The notes under the pieces are model-generated. The model did not search any database. It was not told the DNA's origin and saw only the letters and a list, made by a program, of their open reading frames with translations. A DNA stretch of 64,000 bases from Burkholderiaceae bacterium. GTDB lineage: Bacteria; Pseudomonadota; Gammaproteobacteria; Burkholderiales; Burkholderiaceae_A. The translations under genes were made by a program, and so were the position numbers. Each line of letters opens with the position of its first letter. Positions within the stretch are counted from its first letter, which is position 1. Location of the stretch: positions 3,800 to 67,799 of the forward strand of contig JBMSYB010000004.1 of NCBI GenBank assembly GCA_049426285.1, written 5' to 3'. Shown piece by piece: positions 1,715 through 11,548 of this stretch.

Positions 1715-2562
1715 GCGGTAGCACTGCTGCTATTTGGCCCTGCGGTATGGGCTAAGAACTTCTCTACGGCAGAGATCACCTCTTGCGGCTGGTCTTTGTG
1801 GGGGGAATGGCCGCACTGGGCAATTTTGTGCAGCCGGGCTTGTGAGACCCGCGCTGCGATTCCGTCAATCTGGGCCATGGTGCCGTACTCATCGTTCTCG
1901 CCTTGGATTGCCAGGACAGGACAGGTAATCGCGTCGAGCTCCGACTCAATCGACCATGCACGAAACCGGGCATCAAGCCAGATATCGTTCCAGCCCCAGA
2001 AGGCGGAGTCAGGCTGCCGATGGTGTCTGCCCAGCCTTTGCTTGAGGTCTGTTGCAAGATAGGCCTCGCGCGCCTTTTGAATGTTCTCTACCGTAATGTC
2101 TTCGACCATGATGTGCGGCGCCGCCACAACAATACCGGCAAGCGACTGGGACTGACGCGCCGCATAGAGCAGGCTGATCGAACCGCCATCGCTGTGGCCG
2201 AAAAGGTAGATAGGCTGATCACTCGGCGCAACCCCAAGCGCCTGAAGAAATGCCGGTAGCACTTCAAAGGCCTGTCGGTGCATGAAGTCTGGCTGCCAGC
2301 GTTCGTTGCCTGGCCGAGGAGTGGAATTTCCATAGCCAGGCCGGGAGTAGACCAGGCCTCGCAGGCCCAGTGTCCTGCAGAGCTGATCCGGAAAGTCTCT
2401 CCACATAGACACCGACCCCAGGCCCTCGTGCAGAAAGACCATGATCGGAGCAGGTGACGGAGCCCAGCGTGTTGCGGGCAGAGGGCTGCTTTCCTCGGTC
2501 GCGTCGGTCCATCGATACTCGATATCGATGCTGCGACCGGCCCAAGATATGCCGACGTTCAC
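1711..2562 (-). CDS. Alpha/beta-fold hydrolase associated with the box cluster
   Basis: FLHEGLGS oxyanion region, GHSDGG nucleophile, QGENDEYG acid and GHSPH histidine. Its start overlaps the ligase stop (2559-2562). Confidence 0.88.
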   Translation of the reverse strand: MNVGISWAGRSIDIEYRWTDATEESSPLPATRWAPSPAPIMVFLHEGLGSVSMWRDFPDQLCRTLGLRGLVYSRPGYGNSTPRPGNERWQPDFMHRQAFEVLPAFLQALGVAPSDQPIYLFGHSDGGSISLLYAARQSQSLAGIVVAAPHIMVEDITVENIQKAREAYLATDLKQRLGRHHRQPDSAFWGWNDIWLDARFRAWSIESELDAITCPVLAIQGENDEYGTMAQIDGIAARVSQARLHKIAQCGHSPHKDQPQEVISAVEKFLAHTAGPNSSSATA

Positions 2563-4199
2563 TTGCTCTGGTGCTCCTGTTCGCGAAGACGAAATCGCTG
2601 GATCTTGCCAGTGGCGGTCTTGGGTAGCTCATCGACAAAGGCAAAAAACCGAGGGTACTTGTAGGCCGCGAGCTTCTCTTTGGTAAAGGCCTTGAGTTCC
2701 TCTTCGGATACCTGCTGCCCCGGCTTGCGCACCACGAAGGCCTTAGTCTTGGTAAGCCCTTCGGCATCGGAGATACCGATGACAGCGGCCTCTAAGATGG
2801 CCGGGTGCTGCATGAGGGTGGATTCGATTTCAAACGGAGAGACATAGATGCCGCTGACCTTAAGCATGTCGTCGCTACGGCCAGCATAGGTGAAGCTGCC
2901 GTCGTCATTCTGCACATACTTGTCACCACTCTTGGTCCAGGCTCCACGAAAGGTCTCCTGCGACTTCTCGCGGTTCTGCCAGTACATCAGCGCACTGCTT
3001 GGCCCGTGAATGTAGAGGTCGCCCACCTCGCCGGGGGCAACGGGCTGGCCCTTGTCGTCACGTAACTCGATGGCATAACCCGGCACTGGCCATCCCGTGG
3101 TTCCGTAGCGCACGCGCCCGGGCTGGTTTGATAGAAAAATGTGGAGCATCTCAGTGGAGCCGATGCCATCGATGATCTCCACGCCAAAGTGCTGAGTGAA
3201 CCGTTGACCGATTTCCGCGGGCAGCGCCTCGCCTGCGGAGGAGCACATGCGTAGCGCTACCGCACTACGTGCAGGCAGATTGGGTGAGGCGAGCATGCCT
3301 GCATAGCCCGTGGGGGCCCCAAAGAAAATGGTGGGCTTGTGGTCGACCCAGCGCTTGAATACCGCATCCGGTGTGGGCCGCTCGGCCATTAAGACTACCG
3401 TTGCCCCCACCGACAGCGGAAATGACAGCCCATTGCCCAGGCCGTAGGCAAAAAAGAGCTTGGCTGCCGAGAAGCAGATATCTGACTCTTGTAGTTGCAG
3501 CACGCGCTTGCCATAGAGCTCGGCTGTCCAATAGGGGTTGCCATGGGTGTGCACCGTGCCCTTGGGCTTGCCAGTAGACCCCGAGGAATAGAGCCAGAAG
3601 GCAATCTCGTCGGCATGGGTGTCCGCACAGGCTACCATCGGGCTGGCCGCATAGAGCGCCTCAATTGCGATATCCGGCGCGCCTAGCGAGGCACTTGGCG
3701 AAGCATTGGCCGACGACGTATCGGCAAGCCCCGACACGATAACCGTCTTGGGCTTTGCCGATGATTTTTCGATCGCCTGGGCGAGGGCAGCCCGCAGAGG
3801 CGCTGAGACGAGCGCAGCCTTGGCCTGGCTGTGCGTCAACATGTAGGCATAGTCGTCTGCTGATAAAAGGGTATTTACCGCCACCGGAACAATGCCCGCA
3901 TAGAGGCATCCCAGAAAGCTCACCGGCCAGTCGTTGCTGTCGTGCATGAGCAGCAAGACACGGTCTTCGCGTTGCAGGCCTTGGTTCAGAAGCCCTTGGG
4001 CGATGCGCTGCGCCCGGTCTTGAAGTTCTCCGTAGCGCAGACTGCCACGGTCGTCGATAAATGCGGGCTTATGGGCCCGTTGGGCATTGACCCGAAAGAG
4101 ATGGTCTGCAAAGTTAAAAGAAGCCCCGGGGGCCGGGACTGCTGCGGCCGATGTCTTGGACTGGTCTAACCCTGTTGCCAGGGGTTCTGCGTGCTGCAT
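2559..4199 (-). CDS. bclA: Benzoate-CoA ligase
   Basis: Adenylation motifs WLYSSGSTGKPKG, AAKLFFAYGLGN, IIDGIGSTEMLHIFLSN, GRSDDMLKVSG and PKTATGKIQR. Lies in a box cluster with a strong AGGAG RBS. Confidence 0.9.
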   Translation of the reverse strand: MQHAEPLATGLDQSKTSAAAVPAPGASFNFADHLFRVNAQRAHKPAFIDDRGSLRYGELQDRAQRIAQGLLNQGLQREDRVLLLMHDSNDWPVSFLGCLYAGIVPVAVNTLLSADDYAYMLTHSQAKAALVSAPLRAALAQAIEKSSAKPKTVIVSGLADTSSANASPSASLGAPDIAIEALYAASPMVACADTHADEIAFWLYSSGSTGKPKGTVHTHGNPYWTAELYGKRVLQLQESDICFSAAKLFFAYGLGNGLSFPLSVGATVVLMAERPTPDAVFKRWVDHKPTIFFGAPTGYAGMLASPNLPARSAVALRMCSSAGEALPAEIGQRFTQHFGVEIIDGIGSTEMLHIFLSNQPGRVRYGTTGWPVPGYAIELRDDKGQPVAPGEVGDLYIHGPSSALMYWQNREKSQETFRGAWTKSGDKYVQNDDGSFTYAGRSDDMLKVSGIYVSPFEIESTLMQHPAILEAAVIGISDAEGLTKTKAFVVRKPGQQVSEEELKAFTKEKLAAYKYPRFFAFVDELPKTATGKIQRFRLREQEHQSK

Positions 4200-4267: not shown

Positions 4268-5812
4268 CTAAAGTGCGGCAAGAACCTCCGTGCTGGCCTG
4301 AAGGGCAGAGCGTTGGTGATAAAACTGCAGCGCGCGGGAGCCGCCGAGTTCCTCTCCACCGCCTGCGCGGCCGGGCCCTCCGTGAATCGACTGCGGCATG
4401 ACATTGCCATGGCCTGTCTGCAAAGCTGCGACGTCCGGGCTGATGACATGCACGCGACCGTGATAGGGTGCCACCGCGTATGCGGCCTGCGCCAAGGCTA
4501 TTGGGTCCTTGCCATAGATTGAGGTCACCAGCGAGCCTTGGCCCCTTGCGATTAGCCCATACGCCTGCTCTAGGCTCTTGTAGGGCATAAGGGTGGCCAC
4601 CGGTCCAAAGACCTCCAGGTCGTGCACCAGAGGCCGGCCCTCCGGATCGGTGCAGCCTAGGAGCACCGGGCCCAAGCAGCAGGCAATCGCAGGATCCGCA
4701 TCCACCAGAGGGGCACCGCGTCCATCGAAGAGCAGGTCGGCCTGAGCGCTGAGCTGACCGATTCCTTCACATACGGTTACGAACTGCTCGCGGCTCACCA
4801 GGGCACCCATGCGCACAGACTCATTGCGCGGGTTTCCTACGGTGACCTTCTGCAGGCGCGCCCCAATGGCTGCTGCTGCCTTCTCGTAGAGGGCCTCGGG
4901 AACGAAGACACGACGAATCGCTGTGCACTTCTGGCCGGACTTCACAGTCATTTCCCGGCTGACTTCTTTGGCAAGCAGCTCCAAGGTTTCTGAAGAGTCT
5001 GCGGCATCAGGAAGCAGCAGCGCACTGTTGAGGCTATCGGCCTCAATATTGACGCGCACCGAATGCCCCGTGACTGCGCGATGGCTGCGAATCAGTGCTC
5101 CAGTATCTGCGGACCCAGTAAACGAGACCATGTCAAAAGGGGTAAGTGCATCCAGAAGCCCCGCAGAACTGCCGCAGACAATCGACAGGGCACCCGGGGG
5201 CAGAATCTGGGCATCGATCACGTCCTGCACCATCTGGTGGGTGAGCCAGGCAGTGGCCGTGGCCGGCTTCACCACCACAGGAACCCCAGAAAGCAGCGCG
5301 GGGGCGGCCTTTTCCCATAACCCCCAGCTCGGGAAATTAAAGGCATTGATAAAAAGCGCAAGCCCCGCACGGGGCGAGAGAATGTGCTGAGACTGAAAGA
5401 GGGGCTCTTTGCCGAGCTTCACAGCCTCGTCATCCAGCAGAAACCGGCGCGCGCCCAGTTTGTCTCCCAGCCGGGCATAGGTCGAGAGCGTGTAGATGCC
5501 GCCATCGACATCCACCGCGGTGTCGTTTTTTACCGTGCCGCTGTTGGCCGTGGAGATCTCGTAGTAGCGGTCACGCTGGGACTGCAACACCGCAGCGATC
5601 TTGCCGAGCATCGCACCGCGCTCTTGATAGGTCATGGAGCGCAAGGCCGGGCCCGCCTGCGACCGGGCAAAGGCAAAACCCGCCGCAAGATCTATGCCCT
5701 TTGCATCGACCTCTACTAGCGGGGTTCCCAGCACGGGGTCAGACAGGGTGATGCCTTGGCCGCTGCCGGCCTGCCATTTGCCTGCAAGGTGGTTTTCGAG
5801 CCGGGCGATCAT
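4268..5812 (-). CDS. boxD: 3,4-dehydroadipyl-CoA semialdehyde dehydrogenase
   Basis: PaaZ-like aldehyde dehydrogenase (INAFNFPSWG, FTGSA, EADSLN, KSGQKCTAIRR, EVFGPV, HGGPGRAGGGEELGG). Start moved to ATG 5812 (MIARLEN), which has an AAGGAG RBS; the ORF-track extension to 6022 is not credible. Confidence 0.88.
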   Translation of the reverse strand: MIARLENHLAGKWQAGSGQGITLSDPVLGTPLVEVDAKGIDLAAGFAFARSQAGPALRSMTYQERGAMLGKIAAVLQSQRDRYYEISTANSGTVKNDTAVDVDGGIYTLSTYARLGDKLGARRFLLDDEAVKLGKEPLFQSQHILSPRAGLALFINAFNFPSWGLWEKAAPALLSGVPVVVKPATATAWLTHQMVQDVIDAQILPPGALSIVCGSSAGLLDALTPFDMVSFTGSADTGALIRSHRAVTGHSVRVNIEADSLNSALLLPDAADSSETLELLAKEVSREMTVKSGQKCTAIRRVFVPEALYEKAAAAIGARLQKVTVGNPRNESVRMGALVSREQFVTVCEGIGQLSAQADLLFDGRGAPLVDADPAIACCLGPVLLGCTDPEGRPLVHDLEVFGPVATLMPYKSLEQAYGLIARGQGSLVTSIYGKDPIALAQAAYAVAPYHGRVHVISPDVAALQTGHGNVMPQSIHGGPGRAGGGEELGGSRALQFYHQRSALQASTEVLAAL

Positions 5813-5898
5813 GCTGTCGCTCCTTGCGTGAACTGGATCTGGCCGGCAAGGGCCTGGGTGAGTGCGGCGATCTGTGATCGAAAGGTATCGGGTGTCAC
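5809..5898 (-). pseudogene. 29-codon ORF, probable internally deleted DUF4863-family gene
   Basis: GTG at 5898 with AAGGAGA 6 nt upstream encodes MTPDTFRSQIAALTQALAGQIQFTQGATA, and its TGA overlaps the boxD ATG. The two halves resemble my recollection of the N-terminus and the GxIxFT C-terminus of DUF4863 proteins found at this position in box clusters. Confidence 0.55.
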
Positions 5899-5972
5899 GG
5901 CGCGTCTCCTTGGTTGTTCTCTGGGGCCTACCCCGATGCGCAGGGGTCTCAGGCTTGCTCGAGTTGCGGTTA

Positions 5973-5994
5973 TGCAGTATCGTGCAGGTATGCA
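5973..5994. promoter_or_regulatory. Putative BoxR operator (TGCA repeats) in the boxD/boxR divergent region
   Basis: TGCA-gtatcg-TGCA (5973-5986) plus a third TGCA (5991-5994). BzdR/BoxR-family operators are built from TGCA repeats. Confidence 0.55.
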
Positions 5995-6015
5995 CATTAG
6001 ATCTCATTTCCCAAT

Positions 6016-6930
6016 ATGTCAAGCACTATAGTTCATATTTTCGGTCAGGATGCTGGAACAGAGGAGAAAAACCCTTTCCTGGTGGCGCTCGGCGAGCGCG
6101 TGAAAACCGCCCGAGCTCGCAAGGGAATGACCCGTCGGGCCCTTGCCCAGGCGGCTGAGGTATCGGATCGGCACCTTGCGAACCTTGAATATGGGCTAGG
6201 CAACCCGTCTATTCTGGTACTTCTGCAGGTGGCCAACGCCCTGCAGTGTTCTTTGGCGGAGCTTGTCGGCGATGTGACCACCCAGAGCCCAGAGTGGCTT
6301 TTGCTAAGAGAACTTCTGCAGCAGCAGGATGAGGCGTCTCTACGCCGAATTCGGTTGCAGATCTCAGATTCTCTTGGCCTGGTAAAGCCCGGTTCAAGGG
6401 AGAAGAGCCGGCGTCTCGCCTTAATTGGTCTGCGGGGTGCGGGCAAGTCCACATTAGGGCGCATGCTCTCCGAGGACCTGGGCTTTCCGTTTGTTGAGCT
6501 CAGCCAAGAGATCGAAAAGTTTGCCGGCTGCAGCGTCGCCGAGATACAGGCCCTCTATGGGGTCAATGCCTATCGCCGGTACGAGCGACGGGCGCTCGAA
6601 GAAGCGATTCAGATCTATCCCGAGGCGGTGATTGCCACGCCGGGTGGGCTTGTCTCCGATCCTGCGACCTTTAACCTTTTGCTAAGCCACTGTTCCACCT
6701 TATGGCTCAAGGCCGACCCCGAAGACCACATGGGCCGGGTGCGGGCCCAGGGCGATCTGCGCCCGATGGCGGCCAGCCGTGAGGCCATGCAGGATCTCTG
6801 CAATATCCTTGAAGGTCGTGCGGCTTTTTATTCCAAGGCCGACCTCACCCTCGATACCAGCCGACAGCCATTGGCAGAGACTTTTGGGCTCCTGCGGGCA
6901 TCTGTAAGGGACTTCCTGGATATGCATTAA
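6016..6930 (+). CDS. boxR: Benzoyl-CoA-responsive repressor (XRE HTH plus shikimate-kinase-like domain)
   Basis: N-terminal XRE HTH (RARKGMTRRALAQAAEVSDRHLANLE) and C-terminal LIGLRGAGKSTLG P-loop. This is the BzdR/BoxR architecture. Confidence 0.93.
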   Translation: MSSTIVHIFGQDAGTEEKNPFLVALGERVKTARARKGMTRRALAQAAEVSDRHLANLEYGLGNPSILVLLQVANALQCSLAELVGDVTTQSPEWLLLRELLQQQDEASLRRIRLQISDSLGLVKPGSREKSRRLALIGLRGAGKSTLGRMLSEDLGFPFVELSQEIEKFAGCSVAEIQALYGVNAYRRYERRALEEAIQIYPEAVIATPGGLVSDPATFNLLLSHCSTLWLKADPEDHMGRVRAQGDLRPMAASREAMQDLCNILEGRAAFYSKADLTLDTSRQPLAETFGLLRASVRDFLDMH

Positions 6931-6968
6931 AGTGCTTGACACGGGAAATATTGTTGCATTATTATTCA
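6923..6968 (+). promoter_or_regulatory. boxCBA sigma70 promoter with overlapping operator-like sites
   Basis: TTGACA (6936-6941)-N18-TATTAT (6960-6965), overlapped by TGCA-N6-TGCT (6923-6936) and TGCA-N6-TTCA (6955-6968). Confidence 0.65.
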
Positions 6969-7026
6969 TGTCATAGCAGCATGCACTGCTGTAGCAACCA
7001 TCACAACACCACCTGAGGAGACAGAC

Positions 7027-8685
7027 ATGAATAGCCACCCCCGCGTCGAGTATCAGACCGATCCCACGCAGTACAAGCACCTGAAATTAAGCTTCAACGG
7101 CGCCGTAGCCACTCTGGCCGTAGACATTGACGAGAATGCAGGGCTGCGCCCCGGCTACAAGCTCAAGCTCAACAGCTACGACCTCGGCGTGGATATCGAG
7201 CTTAACGATGCCCTAAACCGTATTCGTTTCGAGCACCCCGAAGTGCGTTCGGTGGTGGTAACCAGCCTGAAGGACCGCATCTTCTGTTCGGGCGCCAACA
7301 TTTTTATGCTGGGGCTTTCCAGTCATGCCTGGAAGGTCAACTTCTGTAAGTTCACCAACGAGACCCGTAACGGTATTGAAGACTCTTCCAAGCACAGTGG
7401 CCTGAAGTTCATCGCTGCGGTCAATGGCGCCTGCGCCGGCGGTGGCTACGAGCTTGCCCTGGCCTGCGACGAGATTGTCTTGATTGATGACCGCTCCTCT
7501 TCGGTGAGTCTGCCCGAGGTACCGCTGCTGGGGGTTCTTCCCGGCACGGGCGGTCTTACCCGGGTGACTGACAAGCGCCATGTCCGCCACGACCTTGCTG
7601 ATATCTTCTGCACCACCACCGAGGGCGTGCGTGGTCAGAAGGCTAAAGACTGGCGGCTTGTGGACGAAGTGGTGAAGCCTGCGCAGTTTGCTGACTACGT
7701 GCAAAAGCGCGCCGAGCAGCTTGCGGAGCAGAGCGATCGTCCAATAGGTGCCAAAGGTATTACCCTGCCCCGCGTGGAGCGCGAGGAGACGGCCGATACG
7801 ATTAGCTACAGCCACGTGAAGATCCAACTCGACCGCGTACTGCGTACCGCAACCATCACGGTGCATGGTCCAGGCGCAGCGCTGCCTCAGACTACCGAGG
7901 CCATTGAGGCAGCGGGTGCCGCCTGGTATCCGCTGGCCCTGGCGCGTGAGCTTGATGACGCCATTCTGCAGCTTCGTACCAACGAGCTTGACATGGGTAC
8001 CTGGATTATCAAAACAGCTGGCGATGCCCAGGCGGTATTACAGATGGATGCATTGCTACAGGCGCATCAGAGCCATTGGCTCGTGCGCGAAACCTTAGGC
8101 CTCATGCGCCGTGTCTTTAGCCGGCTTGATGTCTCTTCGCGCAGTCTGTTTGCCTTGATTGAGCCGGGCTCCTGCTTTGTTGGCAGCTTTCTGGAATTTG
8201 CCCTGGCCTGCGATCGCAGCTATATGCTGGCCCTGCCCGATGATGCGCAGAAGGCCCCGAAAATCGCTGTCTCTGACATGAACTTCGGCACCTTCCCGAT
8301 GGTGACGGGTCAGAGCCGCCTTGGTCGTCGGTTCTACGATGAGGAACCCGCCATTGCCGCGGTGCAGGCGGCCAACGGGCAGATGCTCGATGCCGATGCT
8401 GCATTTGCCTTAGGCCTGGTTACCAGTAACCCCGATGACATCGACTGGGCCGATGAGGTGCGCATTGCGATTGAAGAGCGCTCTGCCATGTCGCCCGATG
8501 CCCTTACAGGTATGGAGGCTAACCTGCGGTTCAATGGCAAAGAGACCATGTTCAGTCGTATCTTTGGACGTCTGACTGCCTGGCAGAACTGGATATTCCA
8601 AAGACCCAATGCAGTAGGCGAGAAGGGCGCTTTAAAGGTCTATGGCAAAGGCGAGAAGGCCGCCTTCGACTGGAATCGCGTCTAG
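7027..8685 (+). CDS. boxC: 2,3-epoxybenzoyl-CoA dihydrolase
   Basis: Tandem crotonase fold with YKLKLNSYDLGVDIEL, HAWKVNFCKFTNETR, LPEVPLLGVLPGTGG and RLTAWQNWIFQRPNA. Confidence 0.95.
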   Translation: MNSHPRVEYQTDPTQYKHLKLSFNGAVATLAVDIDENAGLRPGYKLKLNSYDLGVDIELNDALNRIRFEHPEVRSVVVTSLKDRIFCSGANIFMLGLSSHAWKVNFCKFTNETRNGIEDSSKHSGLKFIAAVNGACAGGGYELALACDEIVLIDDRSSSVSLPEVPLLGVLPGTGGLTRVTDKRHVRHDLADIFCTTTEGVRGQKAKDWRLVDEVVKPAQFADYVQKRAEQLAEQSDRPIGAKGITLPRVEREETADTISYSHVKIQLDRVLRTATITVHGPGAALPQTTEAIEAAGAAWYPLALARELDDAILQLRTNELDMGTWIIKTAGDAQAVLQMDALLQAHQSHWLVRETLGLMRRVFSRLDVSSRSLFALIEPGSCFVGSFLEFALACDRSYMLALPDDAQKAPKIAVSDMNFGTFPMVTGQSRLGRRFYDEEPAIAAVQAANGQMLDADAAFALGLVTSNPDDIDWADEVRIAIEERSAMSPDALTGMEANLRFNGKETMFSRIFGRLTAWQNWIFQRPNAVGEKGALKVYGKGEKAAFDWNRV

Positions 8686-8775: not shown

Positions 8776-10203
8776 ATGAACGGTATTAATTACAGCGAGA
8801 AAATCCCCAACAACGTCAACCTCAGCGAAGACCGTACCCTGCAGCGGGCGCTCGAGCAGTGGCAGCCCAACTACATTCAGTGGTGGAATGACATGGGCCC
8901 GGAGGGCAGCCAGAACTTCGATGTCTATCTGCGTACAGCGACCAGCGTTGACCCCCAGGGCTGGGCCCAGTTTGGCCATGTCAAGATGCCCGACTACCGC
9001 TGGGGCATTTTTCTCAATCCCGCTGAGGCCGGACGCAAGATTCACTTTGGGGACCATATGGGCGAGAACGTCTGGCAAGACGTGCCGGGTGAGCACCGGG
9101 CCAACCTGCGCCGTATCATCGTTACCCAGGGCGATACCGAGCCTGCCTCGGTGGAGCAGCAGCGTCACCTGGGTCTGACCTGCCCAAGCCAGTACGACCT
9201 GCGCAACCTGTTTCAAGTCAATGTAGAAGAAGGCCGGCACCTCTGGGCCATGGTCTATCTGTTGCACAAGCACTTTGGCCGCGATGGCCGCGAAGAAGCT
9301 GAGGCCTTACTCGAGCGCCGCAGCGGGGAGCAGGACAACCCCCGTATTCTGGGTGCCTTTAACGAGAAGACTCCTGACTGGCTCTCGTTCTACATGTTCA
9401 CCTACTTCACCGACCGTGATGGCAAGTTCCAGCTCTGCGCCCTGGCAGAGTCAAGCTTCGACCCGCTTGCCCGCACCACCCGGTTTATGCTCACAGAAGA
9501 GGCCCACCACATGTTTGTCGGTGAGTCGGGCGTGTCTCGCGTGATTCAGCGCACCTGCGACATGATGAACCAGTTAAAGACCGACGATGTTACTAAGCTG
9601 CGGGCTGCAGGTGTCATCGACCTGCCCACCATTCAGCGTTATCTCAACTTCCACTTCTCGGTCACCATTGACCTCTTTGGTGCCGATGAGTCAAGTAATG
9701 CAGCCACCTTCTTTAGCTCTGGACTGAAAGGCCGGTACGAAGAAGGCAAGCGCATCGACGACCATATTCTGAAGAACGACACCTATAAAGTGCTGCAGGT
9801 TGTTAATGGCCAGCTCGTCGAGAAAGACGTTCCAATGCTCAACGCATTAAACGAAGTCTTGCGCGATGACTACATCAAAGACTCTGTGGGCGGTGTTGAG
9901 CGTTGGAATAAGGTGATAGAAAAGGCTGGTATTGATTTCAGGCTTAAGGTGCCGCACAAGGCCTTTAACCGCAAAATTGGTGCCCTTTCCACCGTGAAGG
10001 TATCACCCGATGGCCGCGTGGTCTCTGTTCAAGAGTGGAATATGCATGTGGAGCAGTGGCTGGCCACCGACGAAGACCGTGCCTATGTGGCCTCGCTGAT
10101 GGGCCGTGTCGTAGAGCCCGGTAAGTTTGCCAACTGGATTGCGCCGCCGGTTATGGGTATCAATCGCCAGCCGGTGAACTTCGAGTACATTCGGTTTAAC
10201 TAA
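8776..10203 (+). CDS. boxB: Benzoyl-CoA 2,3-epoxidase, diiron subunit
   Basis: INYSEKIPNNVNL start, QGDTEPASVEQ, EEGRH and EEAHH diiron motifs, FTDRDGKFQL. Confidence 0.96.
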   Translation: MNGINYSEKIPNNVNLSEDRTLQRALEQWQPNYIQWWNDMGPEGSQNFDVYLRTATSVDPQGWAQFGHVKMPDYRWGIFLNPAEAGRKIHFGDHMGENVWQDVPGEHRANLRRIIVTQGDTEPASVEQQRHLGLTCPSQYDLRNLFQVNVEEGRHLWAMVYLLHKHFGRDGREEAEALLERRSGEQDNPRILGAFNEKTPDWLSFYMFTYFTDRDGKFQLCALAESSFDPLARTTRFMLTEEAHHMFVGESGVSRVIQRTCDMMNQLKTDDVTKLRAAGVIDLPTIQRYLNFHFSVTIDLFGADESSNAATFFSSGLKGRYEEGKRIDDHILKNDTYKVLQVVNGQLVEKDVPMLNALNEVLRDDYIKDSVGGVERWNKVIEKAGIDFRLKVPHKAFNRKIGALSTVKVSPDGRVVSVQEWNMHVEQWLATDEDRAYVASLMGRVVEPGKFANWIAPPVMGINRQPVNFEYIRFN

Positions 10204-10246: not shown

Positions 10247-11548
10247 ATGGGTATAGACGATAGCAAGGTGCTCAAGCAGCACCTGATAGACCCCGAGATC
10301 TGCATTCGGTGCAACACCTGCGAGGCTACCTGTCCTGTAGGTGCCATCAGCCACGATTCGCGTAACTATGTGGTCGATGCAGAGAAATGCAACTTTTGCA
10401 TGGCCTGCGTGCCGCCATGCCCTACTGGGTCGATCGACAACTGGCGTGTGGTACCGAAGATAAATGCCTATAGCCTCGAGGAGCAGCTGGGCTGGGATAC
10501 TCTGCCCGCAGAGCTCTCAGCAGAAAGCCTTGCAAGTCTGGGTGTTAGTCTTGAAGATACTGCTTCCTCTCTGGTGACGGTGCCTGGCGATGCGGGCGCA
10601 GTTACGGGCGATTCGACTCAGGTTGCCCCCAATGCGCTGCCTGCGGCGGCTGGTGTTTCTGCCAGTCTGCCTCCCTGGTCTGCGGCCCATCCTTACAGCA
10701 ACCTGTATGGGCCGAAGGCCGCACAAAAGACGGTAAAGGCCACGGTTACAGGAAACTTTCGGGTCACCGAGGTCGGCAAAGACTACGATACTCATCATAT
10801 TGTCTTGGACTTCGGCCAGGCGTTCTTTCCGGTGCTTGAGGGGCAGTCATTGGGTATTGTGCCGCCCGGAGTAGATTCCCATGGTCGGGCGCATCATCCG
10901 CGTCAGTACTCGATTGCCAGCCCCCGCAATGGCGAGCGCGCAGGGTATAACAACGTGTCGCTTACAGTAAAGCGGGTGCTCCAGGACTGGAATGGAAACC
11001 CCATACGCGGTGTCGGTAGCAACTACCTGTGCGATCTGCAGGTGGGCGATTCGGTGGACGTTATTGGGCCCTTTGGTTCCAGCTTCCTGATGCCCAACCA
11101 TCCGAAGTCTAATATCGTGATGATCTGCACGGGTACCGGAAGCGCACCCATGCGGGCGATGACCGAATGGCGCCGCCGTGAGCGCAAAAACAGCGCTGCT
11201 GAGCAGGGCAGGCTCATGTTGTTCTTCGGTGCTCGTACTAAAGAGGAGCTGCCTTATTTCGGCCCGTTGATGAACCTTCCCAAAGACTTCATCGACATTA
11301 ATCTGGTCTTCTCCCGTGAATCCGGTAAGCCCAAGCGTTACGTACAAGATGCCCTGCGGGAACGGGCGGCCGATCTGTCTGCCTTGCTGGCCGACCGCGA
11401 TACCTACATCTACGTCTGCGGGCTAAAGGCCATGGAAGAGGGTGTCGTTATGGCGTTGCGAGATGTTGTATCACAGACGGGTGGCGACTGGGCCGGTATG
11501 CATCAGGCCATGAGGGCGGAGGGTAGAATTCATTTCGAGACGTATTAG
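10247..11548 (+). CDS. boxA: Benzoyl-CoA oxygenase reductase subunit (2x[4Fe-4S] plus FNR domain)
   Basis: CIRCNTCEATCP and CNFCMACVPPCP ferredoxin motifs, RQYSIAS, MICTGTGSAP, YVCG, and C-terminal HFETY. Confidence 0.95.
   Translation: MGIDDSKVLKQHLIDPEICIRCNTCEATCPVGAISHDSRNYVVDAEKCNFCMACVPPCPTGSIDNWRVVPKINAYSLEEQLGWDTLPAELSAESLASLGVSLEDTASSLVTVPGDAGAVTGDSTQVAPNALPAAAGVSASLPPWSAAHPYSNLYGPKAAQKTVKATVTGNFRVTEVGKDYDTHHIVLDFGQAFFPVLEGQSLGIVPPGVDSHGRAHHPRQYSIASPRNGERAGYNNVSLTVKRVLQDWNGNPIRGVGSNYLCDLQVGDSVDVIGPFGSSFLMPNHPKSNIVMICTGTGSAPMRAMTEWRRRERKNSAAEQGRLMLFFGARTKEELPYFGPLMNLPKDFIDINLVFSRESGKPKRYVQDALRERAADLSALLADRDTYIYVCGLKAMEEGVVMALRDVVSQTGGDWAGMHQAMRAEGRIHFETY

Follow-up and report, generated by a model that had tools for sequence, protein, structure and literature searches.

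The short reading frame ahead of boxD in the window, that is, in the whole 64,000-nt stretch of Burkholderiaceae DNA analysed here, is, with a probability of roughly 0.88, the deletion stub of a PF16155 gene and no gene in its own right. Its peptide consists of residues 1-19 and the last 10 residues of a 158-aa PF16155 protein, joined directly to each other. The data presented here establish where the frame came from and where its junction lies, that the catalytic core is gone, that the allele is real, and that the genus has lost this gene repeatedly, whereas ongoing translation of the stub, reinitiation at boxD and a survivorship filter on the frame are inferred.

Anatomy of the short frame and of the box cluster

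The frame translates as MTPDTFRSQIAALTQALAGQIQFTQGATA (29 sense codons). Its coordinates, read on the minus strand (Table 1), agree with the preliminary description, which had reported an AAGGAGA-N6-GTG start and a TGA overlapping the boxD ATG. A Pfam scan of the 29-aa product and of a 62-aa version starting at ATG 5997 gives no match, both being too short, and the stub does not match the PF16155 HMM even at E 10 (gathering score 26.9 bits). Because the Pfam scan is silent on the stub, its homology had to be shown via relatives.

The neighbouring genes adopt the layout of a BoxR-regulated box divergon, with boxR-boxCBA running away from boxD-bclA-lactonase and TGCA repeats between the two arms; the binding of BoxR to these repeats is a prediction. 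This divergent BoxR-controlled arrangement was described by Suvorova and Gelfand 2019 (PMC6449761), where TGCA repeats are the BoxR/BzdR sites and a pfam16155 cupin-like protein is an optional member of the boxD-bclA arm. The role ascribed to the hydrolase in Table 1 follows the one given there for COG2267/COG596 in box operons. The space between boxD and boxR measures 203 nt, contains TTGACA together with the three TGCA repeats, and is conserved in all loci of the genus. A promoter/terminator scan under a strict rule found nothing.

Table 1. Features of the stub and of the surrounding box cluster (window positions).
Feature	Position	Strand	Remarks
Alpha/beta hydrolase (lactonase-type gene of box operons), 283 aa	1711-2562	minus	Pfam Abhydrolase_1/6
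Benzoate-CoA ligase (bclA-like), 546 aa, intact	2559-4199	minus	TIGR02262, 773.6 bits
boxD, 514 aa	4268-5812	minus	Pfam Aldedh; NCBIfam equivalog NF008868, 864 bits
Stub ORF, GTG to TGA, 29 sense codons	5809-5898	minus	remnant of a 158-codon PF16155/DUF4863 gene
ATGA overlap, stub stop/boxD start	5809-5812	minus	TGA 5811-5809, boxD ATG 5812-5810
Last 10 sense codons of the stub, QIQFTQGATA	5812-5841	minus	homologous to the intact C-terminus
boxD's own Shine-Dalgarno, AAGGAG	5820-5825	minus	within stub codons 25-27, 7 nt 5' of the ATG
Deletion junction, one retained GGCC copy	5841-5844	minus	reads GGCCAG at 5844-5839
Stub codons 1-19	5842-5898	minus	homologous to N-terminal helix 1 of the intact protein
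Shine-Dalgarno of the former PF16155 gene, AAGGAGA	5905-5911	minus	6-nt spacer to GTG 5898-5896
Three TGCA repeats, BoxR-operator-like	5973-5994	minus	within the boxR-boxD control region
boxR (XRE HTH + shikimate-kinase-like domain), 304 aa, full length	6016-6930	plus	NF006015, 431 bits; divergent from the stub-boxD operon
boxC, full length	7027-8685	plus	TIGR03222 equivalog
boxB, full length	8776-10203	plus	TIGR03225 equivalog
boxA, full length	10247-11548	plus	TIGR03224 equivalog

Intact counterparts in relatives

Syntenic loci were found by using BoxD as a query in same-genus genomes. BoxD orthologs at 86-88% identity are present in G008, G022 and G005, and G002 holds a fragment. In G008, G022 and G043, the region between boxR and boxD is occupied by a 158-codon ORF whose 158-aa product matches PF16155 (PnbB/DUF4863) with 184-187 bits. 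Every intact same-genus relative shows the ATGA overlap with boxD. Furthermore, a protein search for the PF16155 family returned 6806 clusters, only three of which lie within 90% of the genus sequences. P0145, a member of these close clusters, has Thr5 at its N-terminus in common with the window peptide, and the contigs of its clade (L135-L138, one ENA and three Logan assemblies) carry an intact PF16155 gene and a boxD with the ATGA overlap; they encode a 304-aa BoxR, like that of the window. The AAGGAGA Shine-Dalgarno is identical in the intact G008 and in the P0145 clade, boxD's AAGGAG is likewise present in the intact P0145 clade, and the Shine-Dalgarno, GTG start and ATGA overlap of the stub are identical to those of the nearest intact relatives. 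When the genome from which the window comes was searched for PF16155, no further copy of the gene turned up. No paper using the word DUF4863 was found in the literature.

Origin of the deletion and its junction

Pairwise BLASTP against the same-genus 158-aa protein aligns the N-terminal half of the stub with 16 of 20 residues identical (E 2e-9) and the C-terminal half with 10 of 11 identical (E 5e-5). At the DNA level, the window matches both flanks of a single 387-nt gap, which corresponds to 129 codons in frame, the missing portion being codons 20-148. When the stub is compared with a correspondingly spliced gene of the P0145 clade, 6 of 90 nt differ (three synonymous and three non-synonymous changes), and the DNA of the right flank is identical. 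The ORF is far beyond chance, because its halves match both PF16155 termini and the DNA aligns around one gap. Synteny and terminal identity together make the remaining parts orthologous to the PF16155 gene. The in-frame deletion proposed in the preliminary description is thereby confirmed. The 11 family members examined agree with the termini given there for the family, M..F...IA.LT..IAG at the N-terminal end and LP.G.I.FT at the C-terminal one. The same description would have been abandoned if neither half had aligned to the family termini or if relatives had carried the 29-codon frame with no longer ancestor; instead, both halves match the PF16155 termini, and longer ancestors occupy the same position in relatives.

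The breakpoints can be read from the intact P0145 clade, where the left one is GGC|CGG, an instance of the GGC|CGx of intact relatives, and the right one GGC|CAG, giving a microhomology of GGCC. This 4-nt repeat stands at both breakpoints in the P0145 clade, in G022 and in G043, and one copy is retained at the junction, as is characteristic of a microhomology deletion. A 6-nt repeat, GGCCAA (Gly-Gln on both sides), is found only in one further relative (L139). Of the junction that had been suggested earlier, a GGCCAG (Gly-Gln) microhomology, the GGCC portion is therefore supported by the nearest intact relative, G022 and G043, and the full GGCCAG may possibly have been the repeat in the direct ancestor. 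A direct intact ancestor allele of the window lineage was not found, so the repeat may have measured either 4 or 6 nt. A search with a degenerate junction pattern over genome and metagenome contigs gave 33 and 47 chance matches, none homologous, the pattern being too loose.

The following course of events is proposed. The ancestral operon would have comprised the PF16155 gene, boxD, bclA and the hydrolase gene, divergent from boxR and with ATGA at the boxD start. Illegitimate recombination or replication slippage between short direct repeats (GGCC, perhaps extended to GGCCAG in the immediate ancestor) would then have removed the 387 nt (129 codons) and fused codon 19 directly to the first of the last ten sense codons. 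Such an event would have left untouched the promoter/operator region, the Shine-Dalgarno, the GTG, the last 10 codons including boxD's AAGGAG, and the ATGA overlap.

Loss of the cupin core

The nature of the lost portion is apparent from an AlphaFold model of P0145, built from a 34-sequence alignment (pLDDT 94.8). The model comprises three N-terminal helices, of which helix 1 spans residues 3-17, followed by a beta-barrel at residues 60-146. A fold comparison with the PDB ranks cupins highest, namely the DMSP lyase DddQ and RmlC-like cupins. The invariant residues H94, H95, H97, E101 and H130 all fall within the deleted codons 20-148, and the cupin signature of an invariant H-H-x-H-x3-E followed by a further H is consequently absent from the stub. 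The removal of a cupin-like core, as postulated in the preliminary description, is thereby shown. Because only helix 1 and the C-terminal tail are kept, the stub is not an enzyme; judged by the predicted structure, it cannot fold or catalyse.

The predicted fold of PF16155 is nearest to a DMSP lyase DddQ-type cupin and carries an N-terminal helical bundle. A PDB sequence search returned no solved relative.

History of the gene in the genus

The box cluster is present in 6 of 30 genomes of the genus. In these six clusters, the PF16155 gene is intact in three (G008, G022, G043), reduced to the stub in the window, and missing from G005 and G002, where no recognisable trace of a PF16155 remnant is found upstream of boxD, so that the deletion endpoints are ambiguous. 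In the BoxD tree, the window and a second carrier of the stub (L140) are sister to the intact P0145 clade (support 100/99), and G005 groups with the intact G008 (84/91). In the boxR DNA tree, the window genome (G000) and L140 are sister to the intact-gene clades (98/100), and G002 joins the intact P0145 clade (90/94), apart from the window. A single loss common to G000 and G002, which was also considered, is ruled out by this placement of G002.

Outside the genus, the PF16155 gene adjoins boxR in eight of nine order-level outgroup loci. As regards the outgroup boxD orthologs, it lies directly 5' of boxD in G100 and is absent in G073 and G087. Collectively, the gene trees and the outgroup loci indicate that the ancestor of the genus cluster had the PF16155 gene, which was then lost on three independent occasions. 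Two of these three losses (G005 and G002) left no ORF upstream of boxD.

Age and constraint of the stub

Between the window and the P0145-clade contig L135, boxD has diverged with a dS of 0.427 and a dN of 0.033. Had the stub drifted neutrally along the whole branch, a rough estimate (87 sites, each at about half of 0.427) predicts some 18 extra changes in it, and 6 are observed. This low count fits a deletion that is recent relative to the split between the window and the P0145 clade and continuing constraint on the stub equally well. The comparison of the stub with the matching parts of the intact gene reveals no sign of post-deletion adaptation. One candidate for such an adaptation, a GGG-to-GGA change that perfects boxD's AAGGAG and could have compensated for the deletion, was rejected, since AAGGAG is already present in the intact P0145 clade.

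Dependence of boxD on the stub

The stub and boxD display the anatomy of an ATGA-type pair, with a 4-nt overlap on the same strand and an upstream ORF that has its own Shine-Dalgarno and start. Ongoing translation of the stub is most likely, and ribosomes ending at its UGA could restart at the overlapping boxD AUG, as they would have done after the full-length gene; direct initiation at boxD's own Shine-Dalgarno would add to this reinitiation.

The preservation of the frame requires separate consideration. The boxD frame is open upstream, so a frameshifting deletion would have fused an extension to BoxD: in one alternative frame, read directly from the sequence, a 28-residue N-terminal extension would result, and in the other, ribosomes would cross the boxD start and reach a stop 34 codons past the junction. 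The in-frame outcome is nevertheless best read as chance (1/3), with a survivorship filter that is plausible given these alternatives, because the stub is unchanged from the intact gene, boxD has its own Shine-Dalgarno, and relatives exist without an upstream ORF. In G005, G002, G073 and G087, boxD directly follows the control region.

A different explanation of the same anatomy is that selection keeps the stub as a leader ORF, boxD relying on ATGA termination-reinitiation and the remnant having been exapted as a coupling device. In agreement with it, the Shine-Dalgarno, start, frame and ATGA are intact and identical in two assemblies, the divergence of the stub is not faster than that of coding sequence, and a second deletion in the same operon (in the sister lineage G002) is likewise in frame; furthermore, 13 of 14 tested ATGA gene pairs were strictly coupled, even where a Shine-Dalgarno was present (Huber et al. 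2019, PMC6728339). Against it stand the perfect AAGGAG of boxD at 7-nt spacing, the four loci that have no ORF upstream of boxD, and the fact that all the features described as kept are unchanged from the intact ancestor, with no later adaptation visible. The fold of the RNA of the 5' region is ordinary (z -0.48), and there has been little time for the stub to decay, because its two carriers differ by only 0.4%. Adaptive retention is thus considered unlikely, and the more demanding version, in which the remnant has become a leader ORF that boxD needs, only in-frame deletions survive and the deletion is perhaps polymorphic, slightly more so. The chance that boxD expression now requires the stub is put at about one in five.

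Far less probable than either is that the frame belongs to something other than a former PF16155 gene: an independent small-protein gene, an attenuation-type leader peptide, or a boxD that starts upstream. The strong Shine-Dalgarno would suit an independent small ORF, but the DNA-level synteny and the near-identity to both ends of the PF16155 gene speak against it, and the peptide has neither a run of regulatory codons nor a hydrophobic segment. As regards the upstream start, the boxD frame is indeed open to 6022, where a TTG would open a 584-aa ORF. The Aldedh domain and all orthologs, however, begin at the 514-aa start. The extension (5813-6022, minus strand) was rejected as spurious, as it overlies the conserved TGCA control region and is absent from the BoxD of the orthologs.

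Reality of the allele

The stub is not confined to one assembly. Contig JBMSZP010000164.1 of GCA_049427845.1 (L140) encodes exactly the same BoxD protein and carries an identical stub; across 3719 nt it matches the window at 99.6% identity, with none of its 15 mismatches in the stub. The presence of the same allele in an independent second assembly means that it is no assembly artefact. An identical BoxR is found on two Logan contigs from other runs. The idea of a mis-assembled or mis-binned metagenome, with a deletion present in no real cell, is the most improbable of all the explanations considered, since the genome is admittedly a 108-contig draft but the identical allele recurs in that NCBI assembly among mismatches elsewhere, a Logan contig of another run has the stub's 5' half, and a 4-nt repeat is too short to collapse a k-mer assembly.

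The Logan contig in question, L133 (SRR21705881), is one of the two with the identical BoxR. It corresponds to window positions 5841-7173, and its end coincides exactly with the final base of GGCC at the junction. A k-mer (de Bruijn) graph would branch at this point if the sample held both a deleted and an intact allele that share their 5' sequence. Given its end point, the deletion may be polymorphic in the SRR21705881 sample.

Comparison with known systems

With respect to the PF16155 genes (PnbB/DUF4863, the 4-hydroxylaminobenzoate lyase family), the stub is alike in position, at the head of the arm that diverges from boxR, and in its Shine-Dalgarno, start, first 19 and last 10 codons and ATGA overlap with boxD. 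It differs in lacking 129 codons, the cupin barrel, the invariant His/Glu residues and any Pfam match. What remains descends from a gene of the family but does not itself belong to it.

The stub-boxD pair also resembles the coupled ATGA pairs studied by Huber et al. 2019 (PMC6728339), in that a 4-nt overlap joins two frames of one operon and the downstream Shine-Dalgarno lies inside the upstream ORF. In contrast to those pairs, the upstream frame of the window is a mere 29 codons long and yields no product in its own right, and coupling is predicted from anatomy.

A third comparison is offered by the microhomology deletion remnants of streamlined or reductive genomes, where short repeats similarly leave one copy at the junction, the gene lost is an accessory one, and the loss recurs in sister lineages. 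Unlike these, the stub is unusually tidy, as both translation signals and the frame survive. The case is real, tidy and well documented, but conceptually it is an ordinary example of a gene being lost from a small genome of a freshwater, Burkholderiaceae-type bacterium.

Its value lies in the fact that the stub is a natural, cleanly defined knock-out of an uncharacterised PF16155/DUF4863 gene, with the other box genes intact. Together with three losses in one genus, this argues that, in these small genomes at least, the core aerobic benzoyl-CoA pathway can do without the cupin. Moreover, close relatives show the locus intact, reduced to a stub and cleanly lost, which provides a test case for whether ATGA coupling limits which deletions of an upstream gene are survivable.

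Further variation at the box loci

Several other changes are observed at the box loci of relatives. In G002, a 315-codon ORF (L006:784-1731, minus strand) fuses BoxD residues 1 to ~59 in frame to residues 291-545 of the ligase, and the ligase part is 97% identical to the benzoate-CoA ligase of the window. About 2.3 kb has been deleted, and both boxD and the ligase gene are inactivated, while boxR and the hydrolase gene are intact; the box operon itself is dying in this genome.

In G005, the region upstream of boxD (L004:1240-1500) contains a short duplicated start-like string, ATGACGGAG, with ATGATC 12 nt later. Two ATGs thus stand in the same frame at a distance of six codons, and nothing of PF16155 is left there.

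In the order-level loci L034-L041, the gene that follows the PF16155 gene varies (boxD, an ORF with a benzoate-CoA-ligase-like start, and others), and the adjoining boxR is divergent. Finally, BoxR occurs in two lengths, 304 aa in the window, G002 and the P0145 clade versus 317 aa in G005, G008, G022 and G043. The 13-residue indel just past the N-terminus separates the two clades (window 6016-6930, L004, L006, L031-L033, L136).
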